This document shows, one piece after another, positions 1 to 10,779 of a stretch of DNA of 10,779 nt. The translations under genes were made by a program, and so were the position numbers. The notes under the pieces were generated by a model that was given only the letters and a program-made list of their open reading frames with translations, had not been told where the DNA came from and did no database searches. Source of the stretch: a virus (lineage: Duplodnaviria; Heunggongvirae; Uroviricota; Caudoviricetes). The stretch's first letter is position 1; each line of letters begins with the position of its first letter. The stretch lies in the IMG/VR virus record IMGVR_UViG_2690316099_000007. The stretch is one strand, 5' to 3'.

Positions 1-10
1 TGATCTAACT

Positions 11-40
11 AAAAAGGCCGCTCTGCGGCCTTTTTTCTTT
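11..40. terminator. Bidirectional rho-independent terminator
   Basis: Seen in sequence: GC hairpin GGCCGC(16-21)/GCGGCC(25-30) with a 3-nt loop, preceded by A5 (11-15) and followed by T6 (31-36), so it can act on either strand. Confidence 0.5.
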
Positions 41-130
41 CAATAACTGATTGATTTATAATATGTTATGCCGCTTCGTTCCACTCTGTGAGATAGGGTG
101 CCTTATCCGGCCTTACCCTGGCAACCGATT

Positions 131-161: not shown

Positions 162-302
162 TTACTGCTTACACTGTAAGAACGCCGCAAACTCCGCTCC
201 CCAGAAGCTCATCCGTATTTCACACAGCGAACCGTGCAACATCCAGATGATGAGGATTGCCGTCACGCAGAACGTGATGGTCGTAAGCGATTTTTGCGAC
301 AT
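162..302 (-). CDS. hok: Hok/Gef-family type I toxin (46 aa small membrane protein)
   Basis: Manual reverse-complement translation: MSQKSLTTITFCVTAILIIWMLHGSLCEIRMSFWGAEFAAFLQCKQ*. ATG at 302-300, TAA at 164-162, AAGGAG Shine-Dalgarno 5-6 nt upstream. Hydrophobic N-terminal helix followed by the Hok-family signature SLCE(I/L)R...E(F/L)AAFL.CK, recalled from HokA/Hok of plasmid R1. Absent from the ORF track because it is under 60 aa. Confidence 0.85.
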   Translation of the reverse strand: MSQKSLTTITFCVTAILIIWMLHGSLCEIRMSFWGAEFAAFLQCKQ

Positions 303-472: not shown

Positions 473-1880
473 TACTCCGGCAATTCTGCCTGTTAATTCT
501 GAGGTAAAGGCAAGCTCATCTGATTGTTTCCCCTGTGTGAAGCTGGCAGATCATGCCACGGGATATCTTCTGAAGAGTGAACGCCGGAGGCGTGTTNNNN
601 NNNNNNNNNNNNNNNNNNNNNNNNNNNNNNNNNNNNNNNNNNNNNNNNNNNNNNNNNNNNNNNNNNNNNNNNNNNNNNNNNNNNNNNNNNNNNNNNNNNN
701 NNNNNNNNNNNNNNNNNNNNNNNNNNNNNNNNNNNNNNNNNNNNNNNNNNNNNNNNNNNNNNNNNNNNNNNNNNNNNNNNNNNNNNNNNNNNNNNNNNNN
801 NNNNNNNNNNNNNNNNNNNNNNNNNNNNNNNNNNNNNNNNNNNNNNNNNNNNNNNNNNNNNNNNNNNNNNNNNNNNNNNNNNNNNNNNNNNNNNNNNNNN
901 NNNNNNNNNNNNNNNNNNNNNNNNNNNNNNNNNNNNNNNNNNNNNNNNNNNNNNNNNNNNNNNNNNNNNNNNNNNNNNNNNNNNNNNNNNNNNNNNNNNN
1001 NNNNNNNNNNNNNNNNNNNNNNNNNNNNNNNNNNNNNNNACTTATAGATTTACTATAGCATTGTATTATTTGNNNNNNNNNNNNNNNNNNNNNNNNNNNN
1101 NNNNNNNNNNNNNNNNNNNNNNNNNNNNNNNNNNNNNNNNNNNNNNNNNNNNNNNNNNNNNNNNNNNNNNNNNNNNNNNNNNNNNNNNNNNNNNNNNNNN
1201 NNNNNNNNNNNNNNNNNNNNNNNNNNNNNNNNNNNNNNNNNNNNNNNNNNNNNNNNNNNNNNNNNNNNNNNNNNNNNNNNNNNNNNNNNNNNNNNNNNNN
1301 NNNNNNNNNNNNNNNNNNNNNNNNNNNNNNNNNNNNNNNNNNNNNNNNNNNNNNNNNNNNNNNNNNNNNNNNNNNNNNNNNNNNNNNNNNNNNNNNNNNN
1401 NNNNNNNNNNNNNNNNNNNNNNNNNNNNNNNNNNNNNNNNNNNNNNNNNNNNNNNNNNNNNNNNNNNNNNNNNNNNNNNNNNNNNNNNNNNNNNNNNNNN
1501 NNNNNNNNNNNNNNNNNNNNNNNNNNNNNNNNNNNNNNNNNNTTGAAATTATACTGGATAGCGGTGTTTCCAAAGCTCCCCCAGCGTAAGGCATTCTNNN
1601 NNNNNNNNNNNNNNNNNNNNNNNNNNNNNNNNNNNNNNNNNNNNNNNNNNNNNNNNNNNNNNNNNNNNNNNNNNNNNNNNNNNNNNNNNNNNNNNNNNNN
1701 NNNNNNNNNNNNNNNNNNNNNNNNNNNNNNNNNNNNNNNNNNNNNNNNNNNNNNNNNNNNNNNNNNNNNNNNNNNNNNNNNNNNNNNNNNNNNNNNNNNN
1801 NNNNNNNNNNNNNNNNNNNNNNNNNNNNNNNNNNNNNNNNNNNNNNNNNNNNNNNNNNNNNNNNNNNNNNNNNNNNNNNN

Positions 1881-2695
1881 ATTTCTTCACACTGCTTTTT
1901 CCAAAGTGGATAATGTTTTTCTTTATAAAGAGAAATATCATCTGCTGATACAGGGAAATACTCCTGTTGACTAAATGACTTGATGATTTTTTCTAGTGAT
2001 TGTGGGGTAGTTTGTTCATTGTCAAAGTTTGTAACCAATGGGAATGCATCCGTTAGTTGACAAAGCAAATTATCAACTTCATATTCAGATAAAGCTGTAT
2101 AATAAGGAAGTACAATATTTAATTGCTCGTCATCGGCTACTTTAATGCTGAAATCGGGCATAGACTGAGTGAATTGCTTCAGNNNNNNNNNNNNNNNNNN
2201 NNNNNNNNNNNNNNNNNNNNNNNNNNNNNNNATTTGTTTATCCTTTTCATCTGGCTCAGCAGGAAGCAACCATGAAGAAGGCACTTTATAGCAGATTATA
2301 TTATGTTTTATTGCTGAAAAACGTGGACCGCTATCATTGGTAATGATTGCCACCTCCGAATCTGGATCGTCAGCGCAATANNNNNNNNNNNNNNNNNNNN
2401 NNNNNNNNNNNNNNNNNNNNNNNNNNNNNNNNNNNNNNNNNNNNNNNNNNNNNNNNNNNNNNNNNNNNNNNNNNNNNNNNNNNNNNNNNNNNNNNNNNNN
2501 NNNNNNNNNNNNNNNNNNNNNNNNNNNNNNNNNNNNNNNNNNNNNNNNNNNNNNNNNNNNNNNNNNNNNNNNNNNNNNNNNNNNNNNNNNNNNNNNNNNN
2601 NNNNNNNNNNNNNNNNNNNNNNNNNNNNNNNNNNNNNNNNNNNNNNNNNNNNNNNGCCTTGTAATAATGATACATACTTCATCACAAGCAGTAAT
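1881..2695 (-). CDS. AT-rich cargo gene, unknown function (visible in three fragments: 2695-2656, 2380-2232, 2182-1881)
   Basis: Seen in sequence: one minus-strand frame is open across all 100 codons of 1881-2182 and all 49 codons of 2232-2380 despite AT-rich composition, while every + frame has stops there. Visible peptides: ...YCADDPDSEVAIITNDSGPRFSAIKHNIICYKVPSSWLLPAEPDEKDKQ... and ...LKQFTQSMPDFSIKVADDEQLNIVLPYYTALSEYEVDNLLCQLTDAFPLVTNFDNEQTTPQSLEKIIKSFSQQEYFPVSADDISLYKEKHYPLWKKQCEE.... No family recognised. True start and stop are masked, and whether the fragments are one gene or more is unknown. Confidence 0.45.
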
Positions 2696-3040
2696 NNNNN
2701 NNNNNNNNNNNNNNNNNNNNNNNNNNNNNNNNNNNNNNNNNNNNNNNNNNNNNNNNNNNNNNNNNNNNNNNNNNNNNNNNNNNNNNNNNNNNNNNNNNNN
2801 NNNNNNNNNNNNNNNNNNNNNNNNNNNNNNNNNNNNNNNNNNNNNNNNNNNNNNNNNNNNNNNNNNNNNNNNNNNNNNNNNNNNNNNNNNNNNNNNNNNN
2901 NNNNNNNNNNNNNNNNNNNNNNNNNNNNNNNNNNNNNNNNNNNNNNNNNNNNNNNNNNNNNNNNNNNNNNNNNNNNNNNNNNNNNNNNNNNNNNNNNNNN
3001 NNNNNNNNNNNNNNNNNNNNNNNNNNNNNNNNNNNNNNNN

Positions 3041-4144
3041 TGTTTCTGCTATCCATTCCGGGATTTTTGCCTCAAGCTCAAGCTGCGTGGTAAAGCCGCT
3101 GTTATCAATGGTGTGCTCGGCTTTTGCAATAATCCAGTCCTGATTATCAATCTCGCTTTTAAATCCTGTTACCGTGCCATGCATTTCGGGGTAGAGTTCT
3201 GCACGTCCATGCGCCAGTGTGATGGAGAATGATGCGGCTCCGCGTTGTAGCTGCTGCCACTTTGCCGCCGCTGCACGTCTTGCTGCCTGCTCGTTCTGAT
3301 AAGTTTTGCGTAACACAAACACGTTGCCTTCCGCACCTTCCATATAGTCGCCTTCCCGGCTGCTGCTTTTCTCCTTTTTTGGTTTTGACGGTTTGCGGCG
3401 TTTCACGCTGACTTTTTTCTTTTTCCCGTAATTAAGATCAAGCCAGTAAGCGCGTACCCCCGTATACGCTTCGCGGTCAGCAATGCGGAACTGATGGCGA
3501 TCGCCGCTGCTGCGTGTGATGGCGAACGAGGGCAACGGCTGGCCCTGTGCGTTCACGCCACCACCGGGCATGATGAATAACAGATTACCGCTTTTTACCG
3601 TGGTGATTGCGCCCAGCATTTCCGCCATGCGCGTAAGGAAGGACATGTCGCTTTCTTCGGTCTGGTCGGCGTGGTCGATTTCGATATCCATCAGCATTTC
3701 GCTGATTTGCGGTTTCAGACCATACCGATGAGCGATGGCGGATACCACACGCTCAACGGTCACATCATGCCAGGACACCTCACGTTTAACGTTAAATTCA
3801 GCCCGAAAATCTGCGCTTCTGGCTGAAACAGTCAGCCTGTCCGGCGGTCCTTCGTGAGCGATTTCATCAACAATGTAAGTGCCTTTTTCTGTCAGCGGTT
3901 CTCCCTTCCAGCCAATGAGAACCGTCAGGCGCGCGCCCCGTGGCGGTAGCTGCAACTGACCATCCGCATCATCCAGCGTGATGGTGAGCTGGTCCGCCTC
4001 AAATCCCCGGTTGTCGGTCAGTGACAGGCTCATCAGGCGCTCTGCCACGCCTGACAGCGTTTTACCCTCCGCGAGAATATCAAAATCCGGCATTTTCACG
4101 GGGTCTGTGCCCTGACTGAGCAATTGCATGGTGGTGTCGGTCAT
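3041..4144 (-). CDS. D: P2 gpD-like tail protein (phage late control D family), 3' end masked
   Basis: Translation MTDTTMQLLSQGTDPVKMPDFDILAEGKTLSGVAERLMSLSLTDNRGFEADQLTITLDDADGQLQLPPRGARL... matches the gpD-family N-terminal signature as recalled. ATG at 4144-4142 with GGAGG Shine-Dalgarno 6 nt upstream. 368 codons are visible before the mask at 3040; P2 gpD is about 387 aa as recalled, so the stop probably lies just inside 2696-3040. The 1241-aa track ORF 551-4276 is an artefact of translating N runs. Confidence 0.85.
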
Positions 4145-4204
4145 CTGCTCCCTCCCTGTGTGGCATGGTCGCATGTGCGTGCGGAGGGGGTTACTGCTTT
4201 TTGT

Positions 4205-4222
4205 TGTCGCCGTGGCGGGAGA
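4205..4222 (+). promoter_or_regulatory. Candidate P2-type late (Ogr/Delta-dependent) promoter element upstream of FI
   Basis: Seen in sequence: TGT-N12-AGA with an internal palindrome CGCC-GT-GGCG (4208-4217), about 90 bp upstream of the FI start. The established P2 late-promoter consensus is TGT-N12-ACA centred near -55, so this is a one-mismatch match. Inference only. Confidence 0.2.
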
Positions 4223-4301
4223 ATGGCGCAGGGGTGAGATTACGCGCGTGGTGGGTGATGATTGTTGCCGAATCATTTAACGGATACAAGGGGTTGAAGC
4301 T

Positions 4302-5486
4302 ATGAGTGAAACTCGTTTTCATGGTGCCCGTGTTACGGAAAATACCGACCTGGTAACAGCGATTAACGATGTTGATTCCAGCGTTATCGGTATCGTGGCA
4401 ACGGCGGATGATGCGGACGCGGAGCTGTTCCCGCTGAACAAGCCCACACTGCTGCCCCGCGTCAATGACGTGCTGGGAAAATGCGGAACAACGGGGACGC
4501 TTTATCGTGCGCTTAAGGCCATCGCAGACCAGGTGAGCACAAAGGTGATCGTCGTTCGCGTGGCTGAACACAAAGAAGAAGACGGAAAAACGCAGGATCA
4601 ACTGGTTATCGGTGGTTCTGAATCTGACGGCAGCTATACGGGGATGTATGCGCTGCTTGTTGCAGAGCAGGATGAAAGCATCGGATACCGTCCGCGTATT
4701 CTGGCCGCGCCGGAGCTGGACACGGAGGCGGTGACAAAATCCCTGTGCGTGATTGCGGGTAAACTGCGCGCGTTTGTGTATGCCTCATGTCATGACTGTA
4801 ACACGATGGCTGAGGCAATTACCTACCGCCAGAAATTCAACGAACGTGAGGTGATGCTCTTATGGCCGGACTTCATCGCCTACAACCCGAAAAGTGGCAA
4901 AAACGAAACGTTCCCCGCGCCTGCCTATGCGTGCGGCCTTCGTGCGTACATTGACCATGAGCAGGGCTGGCACAAATCGCTGTCCAACGTTCCGGTTAAA
5001 AATGTGCTGGGGATGTCCAGGCATGTGTTCTGGTCGTTGCAGGCCGAAGACAGTGATGCCAACAGCCTCAACAACAAAGAAATCACGACCATTATTCGTC
5101 GCAACGGGTTCCGCTTCTGGGGCAACCGCACACCGGAAACGAACGCCTACATCTTTGAGGTGTATACCCGAACCGCACAGGTGCTGGCTGATTCAATTGC
5201 GGAAGCGCAGTTTGAAACCATCGACAGTCCACTGACGCCTGCGAACGTGAAGGATGTTATCGGTGCCATCAGGGCAAAACTGGATTCACTGGTTACTGCC
5301 GGGAAACTGATTGGGGCGTCGTGCTGGTATGACGTGGTGGATAACGGCACCACGAATTTACGTCAGGGGCGCGTGCGTATTCGCTACAAATATACGCCTG
5401 TTCCCCCGCTGGAAGACATGGAGCTTTACCAGTCGTTTACTGATGAATTCTTTGGTCCCGCATTTGCGGTGCTGGGAGGTGCCTGA
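4302..5486 (+). CDS. FI: Contractile tail sheath protein (P2 gpFI family)
   Basis: 394-aa ORF with AAGGGG Shine-Dalgarno 8 nt upstream. Conserved FI motifs as recalled from P2: FPLNKP, LRAF.YAS, IRRNGFRFWGNRT, YTRTAQV, YTPVPPLE. Stop TGA overlaps the FII start (ATGA). Confidence 0.95.
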   Translation: MSETRFHGARVTENTDLVTAINDVDSSVIGIVATADDADAELFPLNKPTLLPRVNDVLGKCGTTGTLYRALKAIADQVSTKVIVVRVAEHKEEDGKTQDQLVIGGSESDGSYTGMYALLVAEQDESIGYRPRILAAPELDTEAVTKSLCVIAGKLRAFVYASCHDCNTMAEAITYRQKFNEREVMLLWPDFIAYNPKSGKNETFPAPAYACGLRAYIDHEQGWHKSLSNVPVKNVLGMSRHVFWSLQAEDSDANSLNNKEITTIIRRNGFRFWGNRTPETNAYIFEVYTRTAQVLADSIAEAQFETIDSPLTPANVKDVIGAIRAKLDSLVTAGKLIGASCWYDVVDNGTTNLRQGRVRIRYKYTPVPPLEDMELYQSFTDEFFGPAFAVLGGA

Positions 5487-5998
5487 TGGCTGTACCAAAA
5501 CATCTTCGCTTTTTTACGCTGTTTGTGGATGGTGAAAACGAAGTGGGTAAGGTGACGTCCGTCACTCTGCCTAAGCTGACGCGCAAAACCGACAGCTACC
5601 GGGGTGGTGGCATGATGGGAGCGGTAAGTATTGATCTCGGCCTGGATGACTCCGCGCTTGATGCGAGCTTTGTCATGGGGGGCGCAGTTCGTGAGCTGTT
5701 CCTTAAGTATGGCGGCACGATTGACGGTACGCTGCTGCGTTTTGCGGGTGAATACTACACCGACGCTGAAAGCGACCTGTATGAAGTCGAAATGCGCGGA
5801 CGTGTGACGGAAATTGATATGGGGGAAGCCAAACAGGGCGAAGCCACATCACACACTTACGCCATTAAAAACACCTACTACAAGCTGAGTGTTAACGATC
5901 GCCCGTTGTGGGAGATTGACCTGCTGAACTTCATTTACCGGAAGGACGGCAGGGACATTGTGCCCGATCGCATCCGTTCCGCGCTCGGGCTTGGCTGA
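5486..5998 (+). CDS. FII: Tail tube protein (P2 gpFII family)
   Basis: 170-aa ORF translationally coupled to FI, with GGGAGG Shine-Dalgarno. Motifs VTLPKLTRK, GLDD, MRGR..EIDMGE.KQGE match the P2 FII tube protein as recalled. Confidence 0.95.
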   Translation: MAVPKHLRFFTLFVDGENEVGKVTSVTLPKLTRKTDSYRGGGMMGAVSIDLGLDDSALDASFVMGGAVRELFLKYGGTIDGTLLRFAGEYYTDAESDLYEVEMRGRVTEIDMGEAKQGEATSHTYAIKNTYYKLSVNDRPLWEIDLLNFIYRKDGRDIVPDRIRSALGLG

Positions 5999-6052
5999 TA
6001 AGTAATATGCAGGCGGCGCAGTGCGTCGCCTCTGACTGAAAGGAGTTTCCTG

Positions 6053-6410
6053 ATGAAAGAGACGAAAAACATCGATACCGAAAACACGGTCGTTGCTGAC
6101 ACTGTGAAAGAAACCAGTGAGCGTGGCGTAAAACTTACCCAACCAATTGAGCGAGGCGGCGAAAAAATCACGTATGTGGAGATCACCGGGGCTATTGAGC
6201 AGGCTGGNNNNNNNNNNNNNNNNNNNNNNNNNNNNNNNNNNNNNNNNNNNNNNTGTCGCTGTCTGATGTGCTGAATTTGAAAGCGGAATCCATGTTTACG
6301 CTGCTGTCACGCGTGACATCACCGCGACTGGATGAAGTGACGATCAAAAAAATGGCATCCCGTGACTTTATTCAGTTATGTGTGGTTGCCGTAAATTTTT
6401 TGAGCGGTGC
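6053..6410 (+). CDS. E: Tail assembly chaperone gpE (P2 E family); 3' end masked and frame discontinuous across the 6208-6253 mask
   Basis: ATG at 6053 with AAGGAG Shine-Dalgarno; N-terminus MKETKNIDTENTVVADTVKETSERGVKLTQPIERGGEKITYVEITGAIEQAG. After the 46-nt mask the E-like peptide continues in a different frame (...LSLSDVLNLKAESMFTLLSRVTSPRLDEVTIKKMASRDFIQLCVVAVNFLSG) up to the slippery site. Position between FII and T fits P2 gene order. Confidence 0.7.
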
Positions 6411-6710
6411 NNNNNNNNNNNNNNNNNNNNNNNNNNNNNNNNNNNNNNNNNNNNNNNNNNNNNNNNNNNNNNNNNNNNNNNNNNNNNNNNNNNNNNNNNN
6501 NNNNNNNNNNNNNNNNNNNNNNNNNNNNNNNNNNNNNNNNNNNNNNNNNNNNNNNNNNNNNNNNNNNNNNNNNNNNNNNNNNNNNNNNNNNNNNNNNNNN
6601 NNNNNNNNNNNNNNNNNNNNNNNNNNNNNNNNNNNNNNNNNNNNNNNNNNNNNNNNNNNNNNNNNNNNNTCTTGATATCCGGGTCGCTTTCAGCGCCGTT
6701 GACAGGCTGA
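6053..6710 (+). CDS. E+E' frameshift-extended tail chaperone (-1 slip at 6396-6402, E' frame ends 6710)
   Basis: The -1 frame relative to E is open from the slippery site through the mask to a stop at 6710 (track ORF 6378-6710, C-terminus ...LISGSLSAPLTG), overlapping the start of T as in P2. Most of E' is masked. Confidence 0.45.
6396..6402 (+). promoter_or_regulatory. Programmed -1 ribosomal frameshift slippery heptamer T_TTT_TTG (E to E')
   Basis: Seen in sequence: TTTTTTG lies in X_XXY_YYZ register in the E reading frame (AAT TTT TTG). The -1 frame from here (FFERC...) stays open to a stop at 6708-6710. The P2 E/E' frameshift in the FETUD operon uses the same heptamer (established knowledge). 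Confidence 0.6.
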
Positions 6711-9490
6711 CCCGGCCTGCCGAAAACGCCCGCCGCCTGATGGGGCAGTTTGGTGACTCCATCCAGCGAACGCAGGGGGCGATCAAAAATCTCGAGCGTC
6801 AGGCGCGTTCATTTGAGCGCGCCCGTGACGCTGTCAGTAAAGCGGATGCGGGCATCGTGAAAGCACGACGCCAGCTTAACGCCCTTAATCAGTTACAACG
6901 CACGGGTACAGTGCTCAGCGAAAAACAACAAAAGCTGATGCAGCAGTTAAGCACCCGGCTTGAACGCCTGAATGAATCGCGCACACGGGAAATTCAGAAA
7001 ATGCGGGAACTTGGCGGAGAGCTGAAACGCCACGGCATTTCCCTGACAGGCAGCGATAACACCATCCAGCAGGCCATCAGACGCACCGGACAATACAACA
7101 ACCAGCTTGAACGCGAACGGCGGGCGCTTGCGCGTGTAACGCAGGCGCGTGAGCGGTATTCACGCGCGCAGGAAACAGCGGGAAAACTGAAAACAGGTGG
7201 TGCGCTGGCAACAGGTGCGGCGGCAGCGGGCGGCTATGCTGCCGGGCGTTTTTTGCAGCCCGCTATCGGGTTCGGGAAAGAGATGTCCCGTGTTCAGGCA
7301 CTGACGCGAATCGATAAAAACAGCCCGCAGTTTAAGGCGCTGCGTGAGCAGGCGTTAAAACTTGGCTCTGAAACGCAGTTCACCGCAGGCGATGCCGCCA
7401 GTGGACAGGCATTTCTTGCAATGGCTGGTTTCACACCGCAGGCCATTCAGGCTGCGCTTCCCGGCGTGCTGAGCATGGCAACGGCTGGCGGTATGGACCT
7501 CGGCGAGACGGCGGATATTGGTTCCAATATCCTGACGCAGTTCGGCCTCTCTGCTGACCAGATGGACCGGGTCGGTGACACACTTACCGCAGCGTTTACC
7601 CGTACCAACACTGACCTTCGCGCACTGGGCGAAACCATGAAATATGCAGGTCCGGTGGCGGGTAAGCTGGGAATATCGCTGGAGCAGGCCGCAGCGATGG
7701 CGGGCGTGCTGGCGAAGATGGGTATCAGGGGGAGTGATGCAGGTACAGCGTTGCGTAAAAGCCTGGCCAATCTGTCATCACCGCCAAAGGCAGCGGCAGA
7801 AGCACTGAAAGAGCTGGGGGTGTCAGTTGCTGACGCCAAAGGCAAAATGCGCCCGATGGAGAATGTGCTGGCCGATCTCTATAAAGCCACCCGCAAATAC
7901 GGGGAGGTTGACCGGGTATCGTTCTTTAAGGACATTGCCGGAGAAGAGGCTTTCACATCATTTATGGGCCTCGTTGATGCGGCAGGTGACGGCTTCTTAG
8001 CCAAACTGAGAAAAGAACTTGAAGGCGCGCGCGGTGAGGCAGAACGCACGGCAAAGGTTATGGCCAATAACCTTGATGGCAACCTGAAATCACTCGGCAG
8101 TGCATGGGAAGGTCTGCGTATTCGCATCAGTGATCTGGTTGACGGTCCGCTGCGTTCTGTCACGCAGTGGCTCACGCGGGTTGTCTCAAAGGTGACGGCG
8201 CTGGCGCAGGCCCACCCGGCACTGACGCGCCAGTTACTGATAGCGGGAGGCGCACTGCTGGCGACAACAGCAACGGTTGGTTCGTTGTCTCTGGTTATTG
8301 GGGTGCTTCACGGGAAGCTGGCTACGTTGCGTCTCGGTTTTTCTCTCCTGACCGAATCAATGAATGTTGTCAGGGTTCTGCCTGCATTATGGGGAATGGT
8401 GACGGGTTCCGTTTCTTTACTTGGTGGCGCTATCGGGGCGCTGTTCAGTCCGGTTAGTCTTATCGTGGCTGCGCTTGCCGGAGCTGCCGTTCTTATCTGG
8501 AAATACTGGGATCCCATCAGGGCATTTTTTGCCGGGGTGTTCAGCGGGATTATGGAAAGGCTGACCCCGTTGCGCGAAACCTTTGAACGGTTTGGCCCTG
8601 TTTTTGATGTCGTGCGCGATGGGATTATTCAGGTCTTTAACTGGTTTAAATCGCTGCTGTCACCGATGGAGTCCAGCAAGGAAACGCTGGATAAATGTGC
8701 CAGTGCTGGCGAGATATTCGGTAACGTTCTTGGCGGTGCGTTACAACTTGTTCTGACACCTGCAAAAATGCTACTGGATACGCTGGCGTGGATACTTGAA
8801 AAACTTGGCGTCCTTCCGGATGAAGCGGAAAGGGCGCGCAAGAAAATCGAAGACGCACAGCGTGCGGCCATTCTTCAGGACAAGGTTGCCTTGCTTCAGG
8901 GGAACCTGGCGAAAATCAATCCGCCGAAGCCTGTGGAAAATGGCAATGGCACCGGAGGTGATAAACCCAAAGACAACAAACCGCTCACAGACAGCAATAC
9001 CGGGACGCTACGCAGACTCAGCAAAATTGCTGATAACACAGGTAAGCTGGTTGATGAGACGAAAAAACGCATTGGCCCCGGCGATATTGTCTTTAAGAAC
9101 CTGCCCCGCGCACTTGCTGTTCGTGGGGAGTGGCAGGAGCGGAAGATTGCGCAGGTCAGTAAGCCTGCCCCCGCAATTAATATCACACCCGTGGTCCCGG
9201 CTCCGCTGCCTCCGGCGCTGGTCCCTGTTGTTGCGGCCAGCTCCCGCCCGGTGGCGNNNNNNNNNNNNNNNNNNGCGGAGGCCATACGCTCTCCAGTGGC
9301 ATCAGTTCCTGTAACTTCCCGTAACCGGGAGCCTGTTGCCTCCGGATTTGGTGGTGAAATTCATGTTCATCTGCATAACGTTGTTACGCAGAATCCCCGC
9401 GAACTGGCGAAACTGGTCGGTGAAATGGTCAGGGCAGAAATGGAACGGCGCGCCCGTGCCGGGCGTGGCAGTTTTTACGATAAAGATTGA
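6407..9490 (+). CDS. T: Tail tape measure protein (P2 gpT family); true start lies inside the mask 6411-6669
   Basis: Continuous frame from 6671 to TGA at 9488-9490, about 940 visible codons. Coiled-coil-like N-region (QLNALNQLQRTG..., ERERRALARV), a glycine/alanine-rich hydrophobic segment (LLIAGGALLATTATVGSLSLVIGVL...AALAGAAVLIWKYW) typical of tape measure proteins, and gene order E-T-U. Frame is maintained across the 18-nt mask at 9257-9274. Confidence 0.9.
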   Translation: MXXXXXXXXXXXXXXXXXXXXXXXXXXXXXXXXXXXXXXXXXXXXXXXXXXXXXXXXXXXXXXXXXXXXXXXXXXXXXXXXXXXXXXXLDIRVAFSAVDRLTRPAENARRLMGQFGDSIQRTQGAIKNLERQARSFERARDAVSKADAGIVKARRQLNALNQLQRTGTVLSEKQQKLMQQLSTRLERLNESRTREIQKMRELGGELKRHGISLTGSDNTIQQAIRRTGQYNNQLERERRALARVTQARERYSRAQETAGKLKTGGALATGAAAAGGYAAGRFLQPAIGFGKEMSRVQALTRIDKNSPQFKALREQALKLGSETQFTAGDAASGQAFLAMAGFTPQAIQAALPGVLSMATAGGMDLGETADIGSNILTQFGLSADQMDRVGDTLTAAFTRTNTDLRALGETMKYAGPVAGKLGISLEQAAAMAGVLAKMGIRGSDAGTALRKSLANLSSPPKAAAEALKELGVSVADAKGKMRPMENVLADLYKATRKYGEVDRVSFFKDIAGEEAFTSFMGLVDAAGDGFLAKLRKELEGARGEAERTAKVMANNLDGNLKSLGSAWEGLRIRISDLVDGPLRSVTQWLTRVVSKVTALAQAHPALTRQLLIAGGALLATTATVGSLSLVIGVLHGKLATLRLGFSLLTESMNVVRVLPALWGMVTGSVSLLGGAIGALFSPVSLIVAALAGAAVLIWKYWDPIRAFFAGVFSGIMERLTPLRETFERFGPVFDVVRDGIIQVFNWFKSLLSPMESSKETLDKCASAGEIFGNVLGGALQLVLTPAKMLLDTLAWILEKLGVLPDEAERARKKIEDAQRAAILQDKVALLQGNLAKINPPKPVENGNGTGGDKPKDNKPLTDSNTGTLRRLSKIADNTGKLVDETKKRIGPGDIVFKNLPRALAVRGEWQERKIAQVSKPAPAINITPVVPAPLPPALVPVVAASSRPVAXXXXXXAEAIRSPVASVPVTSRNREPVASGFGGEIHVHLHNVVTQNPRELAKLVGEMVRAEMERRARAGRGSFYDKD

Positions 9491-9502
9491 GGAGTCATGG
9501 CC

Positions 9503-9991
9503 ATGATGATGATCTACGGCATGTTTGTTTTTGAGCTGCGTACATTGCCGCATCAGCAGTTACAGCAAAACAAAAGCTGGCGGCATGTGAAAAATGAACG
9601 CGTTAACCGTTCGGCAAGCTGGCAGTATATCGGTGCAGGTGATGAGCGCATCGTTCTTTCTGGTGTGCTTTATCCTGAAATTACAGGTGGCGAAGTGTCG
9701 CTGTCGCTGCTGACCACGCAGGCGTATACAGGACGACCCTGGCCTCTGATTGATGGCGTCGGGCAGATTTACGGCATGTATGTCCTGACCGAAACGAATA
9801 CGACCCGCTCCGAGTTTGATCGCTACGGTAAGGCGAAAAAGATAGAATTTTCACTGACTCTTGAACGCTGTGATGAGGATTTGCGGGAGCGCCTGCAATC
9901 CTCATCGTTCAGCGATATGCTGTCCGGCTTCAAAGATAAGGTAACATCATCCCTTAACAGCGCGGCCAGTTCAGTTAAAGGGTTGTTCTGA
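9503..9991 (+). CDS. U: Tail protein gpU (P2 U family)
   Basis: GAGGAG Shine-Dalgarno at 9489-9494 is spaced 8 nt from the ATG at 9503, and only 2 nt from the alternative ATG at 9497. Product MMMIYGMFVFELRTLPHQQLQQNKSWRH... resembles the P2 gpU N-terminus (MMM...G.FVF...TLP) as recalled. Stop TGA at 9989-9991. Confidence 0.9.
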   Translation: MMMIYGMFVFELRTLPHQQLQQNKSWRHVKNERVNRSASWQYIGAGDERIVLSGVLYPEITGGEVSLSLLTTQAYTGRPWPLIDGVGQIYGMYVLTETNTTRSEFDRYGKAKKIEFSLTLERCDEDLRERLQSSSFSDMLSGFKDKVTSSLNSAASSVKGLF

Positions 9992-10002
9992 TTTAACACA
10001 AA

Positions 10003-10037
10003 AACCGCTAATGGTCAGATTAGCGGTTATTTTGTTT
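10003..10037. terminator. Bidirectional rho-independent terminator between the convergent U and invertase genes
   Basis: Seen in sequence: perfect stem ACCGCTAAT (10004-10012) / ATTAGCGGT (10019-10027), loop GGTCAG, flanked by an A-rich run upstream and TATTTTGTTT downstream. The invertase stop codon (10029-10027) lies in the stem. Confidence 0.6.
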
Positions 10038-10683
10038 CCTGACTCTTCTCTATTGTTCCGATTGATTCTCCTGCGGGGTGGTAACGATAAATCGTCGATA
10101 TACCAATGCCGTAAATTATTGCCAGTTGTTTTCTGTCGTGCCCGTTTTTGATCAGCCTTGCTATTTGCTCATGCTGTTCTTTTGTCAGCTTCGGTCGACG
10201 TCCNNNNNNNNNNNNNNNNNNNNNNNNNNNNNNNNNNNNNNNNNNNNNNNNNNNNNNNNNNNNNNNNNNNNNNNNNNNNNNNNNNNNNNNNNNNNNNNNN
10301 NNNNNNNNNNNNNNNNNNNNNNNNNNNNNNNNNNNNNNNNNNNNNNNNNNNNNNNNNNNNNNNNNNNNNNNNNNNNNNNNNNNNNNNNNNNNNNNNNNNN
10401 NNNNNNNNNNNNNNNNNNNNNNNNNNNNNNNNNNNNNNNNNNNNNNNNNNNNNNNNNNNNNNNNNNNNNNNNNNNNNNNNNNNNNNNNNNNNNNNNNNNN
10501 NNNNNNNNNNNNNNNNNNNNNNNNNNNNNNNNNNNNNNNNNNNNNNNNNNNNNNNNNNNNNNNNNNNNNNNNNNNNNNNNNNNNNNNNNNNNNNNNNNNN
10601 NNNNNNNNNNNNNNNNNNNNNNNNNNNNNNNNNNNNNNNGTATTCTGGTCATTTGTTGATACCCTTACATAGCCAATCAGCAC
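10027..10683 (-). CDS. Serine DNA invertase, Gin/Pin/Cin/Hin family (catalytic core masked)
   Basis: N-terminus from a GTG start at 10683 reads (M)LIGYVRVSTNDQN, the Gin/Pin N-terminal signature with the catalytic Ser in VRVS. C-terminal HTH region GRRPKLTKEQHEQIARLIKNGHDRKQLAIIYGIGISTIYRYHPA closely matches the Hin/Pin DNA-binding domain as recalled. GGGAGA Shine-Dalgarno 6 nt upstream. Middle 436 nt masked but frame is conserved across it. Confidence 0.9.
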   Translation of the reverse strand: MLIGYVRVSTNDQNXXXXXXXXXXXXXXXXXXXXXXXXXXXXXXXXXXXXXXXXXXXXXXXXXXXXXXXXXXXXXXXXXXXXXXXXXXXXXXXXXXXXXXXXXXXXXXXXXXXXXXXXXXXXXXXXXXXXXXXXXXXXXXXXXXXXXXXXXXXXXXXXXXGRRPKLTKEQHEQIARLIKNGHDRKQLAIIYGIGISTIYRYHPAGESIGTIEKSQETK

Positions 10684-10737: not shown

Positions 10738-10764
10738 TTATCTAAAACTGAGGTAGCCTGAGTT
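10738..10764. promoter_or_regulatory. Candidate invertase crossover site or promoter-operator (gix/hix-like half-site plus imperfect palindrome), truncated by window end
   Basis: Seen in sequence: TTATCTAAAAC (10738-10748) matches 10 of 11 positions of the recalled gix/hix half-site TTATC(C/A)AAAAC and lies about 55 bp upstream of the invertase start, where gixR sits relative to gin in Mu. It overlaps an imperfect dyad AAACTGAGG-TAG-CCTGAGTTT (10744-10764). The second half of a canonical 26-bp site is not clearly present. Confidence 0.25.
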
Positions 10765-10779
10765 TAACGGACACTCCTT

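Follow-up and report, generated by a model that had tools for sequence, protein, structure and literature searches.

Bacteriophage P2 carries its tail genes in one co-directional unit, the F operon, in which the late promoter pF is followed by FI, FII, E, E', T, U and D and then by ogr, and the D start codon overlaps the U stop. Felsduovirus (SEN8, Fels-2 type) and Wadgaonvirus phages have an invertible fibre segment with a serine invertase at the boundary between the fibre genes and the tail operon. In SEN8 and Wadgaonvirus 500465-1 FI comes immediately after the invertase, on the invertase strand, and U adjoins D; this is the un-inverted state. The 10,779-nucleotide (nt) viral stretch analyzed here (IMG/VR record IMGVR_UViG_2690316099_000007; the window) also has a fibre-type invertase beside its tail operon, and it shares with P2 the gene set, the geometry of pF and the position of ogr 3' of D. 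It differs in that the FI-U block is inverted, D is divergent from FI, and D is ~48-50% identical to its P2 counterpart. We consider it likely that the FI-U block was inverted once in the ancestor of a phage clade and then became fixed, that the window belongs to a P88-type prophage of this clade, and that D and FI share a putative promoter in the spacer between them.

Tail operon layout in the window and its relatives

All five members of the Peduoviridae contractile tail set (FI, FII, T, U and D) were identified above curated Pfam cut-offs (Table 1). GpD matches Phage_GPD (E 3.7e-17) and the tail protein family phrog_52 (E 3e-165) and is 99% identical to gpD of phage P88; its stop was placed at ~3035 by reference to relatives, because the gene is unmasked only to 3041. 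The tape measure stretch at 6671-9256 matches PhageMin_Tail (E 1.2e-57). For E, the start (6053) is the only unmasked part, and its position corresponds to the "tail protein" and "GpE family" coding sequences (CDSs) of locus L001. Several structural features of the original prediction hold in this annotation: gpD is divergent from the tail block, with D on the minus strand (4144 to ~3035) and FI-FII-E-T-U on the plus strand (4302-9991); D has its own Shine-Dalgarno sequence (GGAGGGAG, 4148-4155, minus strand) just 5' of its ATG; and U is followed by a terminator hairpin (10003-10028) and a convergent invertase, recognized as an open reading frame (ORF) with an HTH_7 domain. The terminator scores as intrinsic on both strands and is common to the FI-U operon and the invertase. 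The canonical co-directional order FI-FII-E-T-U-D was not found in the window, where D lies upstream of FI on the opposite strand.

The same layout is widespread. The segment 3041-6207, which spans the D/FI junction, is contiguous at 95-99% identity in 1,112 of 5,426 complete Escherichia coli genomes. The top E. coli match is a complete P2-like prophage with portal, terminase, capsid, lysis, baseplate and fibre genes and an invertase; these genes share one strand with D and ogr, and only FI-FII-E-E'-T-U lie on the other. A search of a phage collection with the same segment identified Escherichia phage P88 (Xuanwuvirus) at 97.5% nt identity, followed by PhiR44_2, 500465-2, P884B11 and Citrobacter phage phiSM. 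Unmasked pieces of the window map to P88 at 93.8-98.7% nt identity, and the P88 record (KP063541) has the order and strands of the window, with the invertase, U-T-E'-E-FII-FI on the opposite strand, and then D-ogr-hok. On the 5' side of the P88 invertase are fibre genes and then the invertible fibre segment. Compared with P88, PhiR44_2, 500465-2 and phiSM, the window has identical order and strands and 93-98% nt identity over D-FI-FII; two features are found in the window and not in P88, namely a PIN-domain cargo gene between D and ogr and an insertion sequence (IS) in the invertase crossover site. The P88 GenBank record carries no annotated ogr, and a homologue is present at 34433-34928, 49 nt 3' of D and 99% identical to that of E. 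coli E2863.

A scan with the D protein, using one genome per species, yielded 22 loci. D is opposite to FI in 19 of these (D 64-98% identical); in the remaining three the sequence is not long enough to reach FI. The 19 loci come from at least 13 Enterobacterales genera (Salmonella, Edwardsiella, Kluyvera, Erwinia, Enterobacter, Mixta, Pantoea, Kosakonia, Citrobacter, Brenneria, Izhakiella, Klebsiella, Rouxiella and Trabulsiella). The same inversion was found in Senquatrovirus SEN5 (D 63% identical), Reginaelenavirus Kp4871-3 (70%) and Reipivirus Kp4848-1 (72%), all three of which lack an invertase. On the U side, members of the clade carry nothing (U convergent with G at a distance of ~160 nt), an invertase or an acetyltransferase gene, at the position that Z/fun occupies in P2. 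Two records labelled as Firmicutes, Vagococcus sp. WN89Y (locus L004) and a Planococcaceae metagenome-assembled genome (L021), encode D proteins 98% identical to that of the window, and L004 holds the whole FI-U block at 95-99% identity; these records look like contamination or mis-binning.

The arrangement had been described as broken P2 synteny. It is instead the conserved layout of a known phage group, P88 and its relatives, and is standard for these phages. No account of the FI-U inversion was found in the literature on P88, phiSM, SEN4/5, Xuanwuvirus and P2-like inversions.

A cluster of this kind could also be a degraded mosaic remnant or a tailocin, with gpD derived from a different adjacent element, as had been proposed. 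The window itself contains no head genes, and the IS that interrupts the crossover site at its edge means that this prophage copy may be damaged. Such an origin is nevertheless very improbable, given that an identical gene order occurs in phages that have been isolated or induced (P88, phiSM and SEN5) and in full prophages, whose capsid, terminase, lysis and baseplate genes are present. Chemical treatment induces P88, and phiSM becomes active spontaneously (PMC6456863). A tailocin lacks capsid, packaging and replication genes; in relatives with the layout of the window, portal, terminase, capsid and lysis genes are present, and these relatives form phage particles. The complete P88 genome has only one annotated D-like gene, and D identity co-varies with that of FI and U across the clade, which argues against a foreign source for gpD. 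The head, lysis and ogr genes that were to be looked for nearby are present in relatives with the same layout, and in the window ogr begins at 493.

Orientation of the FI-U block

Canonical order was found only where D is at most 53% identical to that of the window (Wadgaonvirus, Kapieceevirus, Elveevirus, Felsduovirus SEN8, Kp4884-2 and P2), and the inverted layout is found where D is at least 63% identical. A neighbor-joining tree constructed from D and FI placed 25 inverted loci in one clade, separate from six canonical loci. The monophyly of the inverted loci and the restriction of canonical order to distant D proteins point to one event, and a single ancestral inversion is the parsimonious reading of these comparisons. 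The FI-FII-E-E'-T-U segment was flipped once, between the region 5' of the pF late promoter and the U/D boundary. FI-U thereby became a self-contained operon that runs from pF to the bidirectional terminator, where it meets the fibre/invertase region, and D and ogr now form a short unit of their own on the opposite strand. The earlier expectation that flipping FI-U would restore canonical order is confirmed by SEN8 and 500465-1, in which that state exists.

Because a serine invertase directly adjoins U, and because a flip of FI-U would give the order seen in SEN8, the block could in principle be an active invertible segment, that is, a phase-variable tail operon. Orientation was therefore examined with a flipped-junction query, in which the first 400 nt of D were fused to the last 400 nt of U in reverse complement. 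The joined U-D junction was found in 0 of the 1,412 E. coli genomes that carry both halves (5,426 searched). As a positive control, 300 nt from either side of the intact P88 crossover site (TTCCTGTAAACCGAGGTTTTAGATAA) were used. The P88 configuration of this segment is kept in only 133 of 1,020 genomes, and most control alignments end at query nt ~292, which is the crossover site. The fibre segment thus varies among the same assemblies, so assemblies do record real invertase switching.

The junctions of the block also lack the expected sites. Serine invertase systems such as Gin, Cin, Pin and Hin resemble the window in having the invertase gene beside a 26-bp gix/cix-like crossover site; they invert fibre or flagellin segments between paired sites, whereas no site pair bounds the FI-U block, which does not switch. 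In a scan of all 26-mers against the gix-type site, both junctions contain 26-mers at 12/22, and this best junction score is at background level and without a good half-site; the real half-site beside the invertase matches at 10/11. No inverted repeat linking the two block junctions was detected in a repeat search. The weak 7-mer repeats reported earlier (ATTTAAC and TTTTTGT) are indeed common to both junctions, but at chance level (P ~0.2), and they sit in the dyad flank, the FI leader and the T-tract of the terminator. They were rejected as recombination scars, being at chance level and each lying within a functional element. Most members of the clade share the inversion and have no invertase at all; among the D-scan loci, an invertase is beside U in only ~6. 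An actively switching FI-U block is accordingly the least probable of the explanations weighed here, and we regard it as extremely unlikely. The ancient inversion that had been offered as one option is borne out by the clade tree and by the uniform orientation of the block, and the invertase-mediated or switchable inversion offered beside it is opposed by the missing flipped junctions, the junctions without crossover-like sites and the many members without an invertase. The search for both orientations in related genomes and for recombinase sites above background at the junctions gave nothing in favor of the latter.

The invertase has a different role. The window copy is 95-97% identical to the P88 DNA invertase, whose own crossover sites flank the fibre segment; it serves a tail-fibre host-range switch and is unrelated to the FI-U inversion. 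In the window this switch is probably disabled, since the crossover site is cut after its left half by an IS3-family element. The bases at 10749-10779 correspond to the ends of a multicopy IS in ~3,000 E. coli genomes, where they are never joined to the invertase side, and the K-12 copy adjoins an IS3-family transposase fragment near fecE. The junction between crossover site and IS seen in the window was found in 0 of 5,426 E. coli genomes.

The D-FI spacer and transcription of D and ogr

The inversion raises the question of how D is transcribed. After inversion D is unreachable from pF, and read-through from the fibre genes would face the terminator and 5.8 kb of antisense sequence, so D needs a promoter in the spacer. 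The spacer is conserved across the clade, at 145-157 bp in 20 of 21 loci measured; the exception, L023, has 232 bp and carries an insertion. From the D side, its blocks are the D start and Shine-Dalgarno sequence, a -10-like element, a CGCGCGCG box and a TTTTTGTTGTC...CAGAC/ACAAC motif, followed toward FI by CGTGA, GGGATTAT, GCGAACTCA and the FI Shine-Dalgarno sequence and start.

At the center is a dyad of the type bound by the Ogr activator, for which the P2 late-promoter consensus is TGT-N12-ACA (PMC3931495). A single dyad is present at the same position in 20 of 21 spacers scanned, and a variant in L015 ends in AGG. Among 22 non-redundant spacers the dyad ends in ACA in six, AGA in 15 (window included) and AGG in one. 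The distance from the dyad center to the FI ATG is 78.5-88.5 nt in the clade and 88.5 nt in the window, and the annotated P2 pF site lies at 83 nt; the distance to the D ATG is 66.5-76.5 nt (150.5 nt in L023, owing to the insertion). Hexamers of the A..AT type occur at mirror-image offsets, ~43-49 nt from the dyad center, on both sides and across the clade. When a weight matrix built from non-P88 D-FI dyads was run over ~71,600 P88 positions, the D-FI spacer ranked first (24.0 bits) and the P-O spacer second (19.4 bits). Conservation in the clade and this top rank in P88 support the original proposal that the TGT-N12-AGA element at 4205-4222 belongs to a late promoter. A third P88 match (13.5 bits, 18638-18667) falls within an ORF of the lysis region, 5' of the tail-completion genes, and may be a pV-equivalent late promoter displaced upstream or a chance match.

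A described precedent exists in P2 itself, in whose record the divergent promoters pP and pO share one activator site; the two transcription starts lie 56 and 55 nt away from the center of this site. The D-FI spacer has in common with pP/pO a length of ~150 bp, divergent late genes, one central dyad of the TGT-N12-ACA type and mirror-image promoter elements; the starts are annotated for pP/pO in the P2 record, whereas those in the D-FI spacer are predicted only. The P-O spacer of the prophage itself is 154 bp long, with a single near-identical dyad (TTGTTGTAAGAAAACGGCCAGA) and a CGCGCGCG-plus-hexamer arrangement on the P side. In the D-FI spacer, a dyad center at about -55 from both predicted starts would fit the distances that separate the dyad from the start codons and the -10-like hexamers. 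The cognate zinc-finger activator of the Ogr/Delta type is phage-encoded (ogr from 493, minus strand).

From these features we infer that the spacer is a bidirectional Ogr-dependent late promoter for FI-U on one side and D-ogr on the other. The dyad of pF, a palindrome to which Ogr binds and which now stands between FI and D, would serve both directions: pF would drive FI-U, and a mirror-image promoter, pD, would drive D, any cargo and ogr. We propose that the inversion was tolerated because this palindromic dyad lies between FI and D. In most clade loci D is followed after 43-55 nt by ogr, on the same strand, and pD would therefore keep the late read-through into ogr that is annotated for the P2 F operon. 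On balance we lean toward a further step, in which the inversion turned the one-way pF into a second bidirectional late promoter and created both a new Ogr-activated D-ogr operon with positive feedback and a cargo site between D and ogr.

Alternatively, the inversion could be ancestral and fixed, with D-ogr read from an Ogr-independent promoter in the spacer and the dyad serving pF only. The D-side -10-like hexamer is weak and variable, the D side has a conserved CGCGCGCG box, and, as ogr is needed before Ogr exists, some Ogr-independent promoter must act upstream of ogr. This version nonetheless seems unlikely to us: a scan of the spacer for sigma-70 consensus promoters found none, the offsets of the D-side elements from the dyad mirror those on the FI side, as at P2 pP/pO, and the CGCGCGCG-plus-hexamer pair recurs beside P in the P-O spacer of the prophage. 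With regard to the box itself, the copy in the window (4172-4182) is on the D side, flanked by the dyad and the hexamer; the box is also found on the P side of the P-O spacer (40020-40040 region of L001) and is absent from the FI and O sides. A hairpin in the D leader, formed by CCCCCTCC and the D Shine-Dalgarno sequence, was rejected as a regulatory candidate, as its place would be 5' of the predicted start and its conservation does not extend beyond the P88 group.

Several observations weigh against a single fixed inversion with a shared Ogr-dependent promoter. The dyad of the window ends in AGA rather than ACA, and the D-side -10 (GACCAT) is a weak one. Taken by itself, the pattern TGT-N12-A[C/G]A shows no enrichment in the window (four found, 6.2 expected), so support for the dyad is positional and comparative, from conservation and the weight matrix. 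The case for pD as a putative promoter, and for its dependence on Ogr, is one of geometry and conservation. Canonical phages have nothing that corresponds to the D-side half of the spacer, and the exact ancestral breakpoints therefore cannot be reconstructed. The absence of flipped junctions was scored in complete assemblies, which show the majority orientation only, and very rare flipping in a population would be compatible with it. Finally, masking conceals parts of the window.

Other features of the window and significance of the layout

The window covers the right arm of a P2-like prophage of the P88 type (Xuanwuvirus), which is integrated beside ihfA. Its first 90 nt match E. coli E2863 directly after ihfA (97.8%), and the minus-strand transcription order in this arm is D, an AT-rich cargo gene, ogr and hok. 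The unmasked part of ogr is 100% identical to ogr of E2863, whose protein matches Ogr_Delta (E 5e-14).

N-masking covers about a quarter of the window, in ten runs, and coordinates within the masks are approximate. The lengths of the runs disagree with near-identical genomes: 46 N at 6208-6253 correspond to 14 nt in relatives and 18 N at 9257-9274 to 0 nt, and every such run is longer, by ~20-90 nt. ORF lengths and coordinates across masks are therefore unreliable, and so is the left limit of 2983 given earlier, for which relatives indicate instead a D stop at ~3035. The end of E, E', the start of T, most of the invertase and most of ogr are readable in relatives only.

Table 1. Features of the 10,779-nt window, in order of position
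Feature	Position	Strand	Remarks
Host DNA downstream of ihfA	1-84		Prophage end at about 85-90
hok/gef-family toxin gene at prophage end	162-302	-	46-aa ORF; Pfam HOK_GEF, E 8e-7
ogr, late activator	493-753	-	Unmasked 493-596 only; upper limit approximate
AT-rich cargo gene, 500-aa PIN_4-domain protein	1082-2776	-	Mostly masked; limits approximate
gpD, baseplate hub / late control D	3035-4144	-	ATG 4144; unmasked 3041-4144
D-FI spacer, conserved regulatory module	4145-4301		157 bp; inferred bidirectional late promoter (pD leftward, pF rightward)
Predicted pD -10-like hexamer, GACCAT	4165-4170	-	~43.5-48.5 nt from dyad center; mirror-image position to FI-side element; predicted start near 4157-4158
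Ogr-type activator dyad, TGTCGCCGTGGCGGGAGA	4205-4222		TGT-N12-AGA; invariant flank TTTTTGTTGTC
Predicted pF -10, GATGAT	4257-4262	+	GATTAT in most relatives; conserved GGGATTAT block; predicted start near 4268-4269
FI, tail sheath	4302-5486	+	Pfam Phage_sheath_1, Gp18_domIII_N, Phage_sheath_1C
FII, tail tube	5486-5998	+	Pfam Phage_tube, E 1.9e-46
E, tail chaperone	6053-6450	+	End masked; E' (about 6520-6675) wholly masked
T, tape measure	6662-9490	+	Start masked, set by homology (mapping to L001)
U, tail protein	9497-9991	+	Pfam Phage_P2_GpU, E 7.7e-39
Bidirectional intrinsic terminator	10003-10028		10-pair stem, T-run on both strands; inverted repeat I8
Serine DNA invertase	10027-10683	-	GTG start 10683; Pfam HTH_7 (resolvase), E 2.4e-14; catalytic part masked
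Left half of gix/cix-type crossover site, TTATCTAAAAC	10738-10748		Half-site match 10/11
IS3-family element terminus, TGAGGTAGCCTGAGTTTAACGG...	10749-10779		Inside crossover site

The cargo gene between D and ogr was characterized through its unmasked pieces, which are 100% identical to a PIN-domain CDS of E2863 (proxy L030 11331-12833). The protein has an N-terminal PIN_4 domain (Pfam E 4.5e-8) and no PADLOC, NCBIfam or PHROG match. The gene, which 59 E. coli genomes carry at 100% identity, is a candidate uncharacterized prophage moron or defense gene. Other AT-rich genes occupy the D-ogr interval on the opposite strand in L004 (11229-12389) and L021 (568-1590), encoding 386 and 340 aa, respectively. 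The presence of these different genes suggests that the interval is a recurrent cargo hotspot specific to that position.

The layout is normal for a large and common clade that includes four genera recognized by the International Committee on Taxonomy of Viruses (ICTV) and is found in roughly one in five complete E. coli genomes. Annotators should therefore not mark it as rearranged, as a remnant or as a phase switch, and the D/FI arrangement provides a clean synapomorphy for classifying these phages. If the bidirectional promoter and the D-ogr feedback operon are as proposed, the clade would be a natural example of an operon inversion buffered by the symmetry of an activator site. The conserved D-FI spacer would then offer a simple case in which a palindromic activator site allows an operon to be inverted without loss of late regulation.

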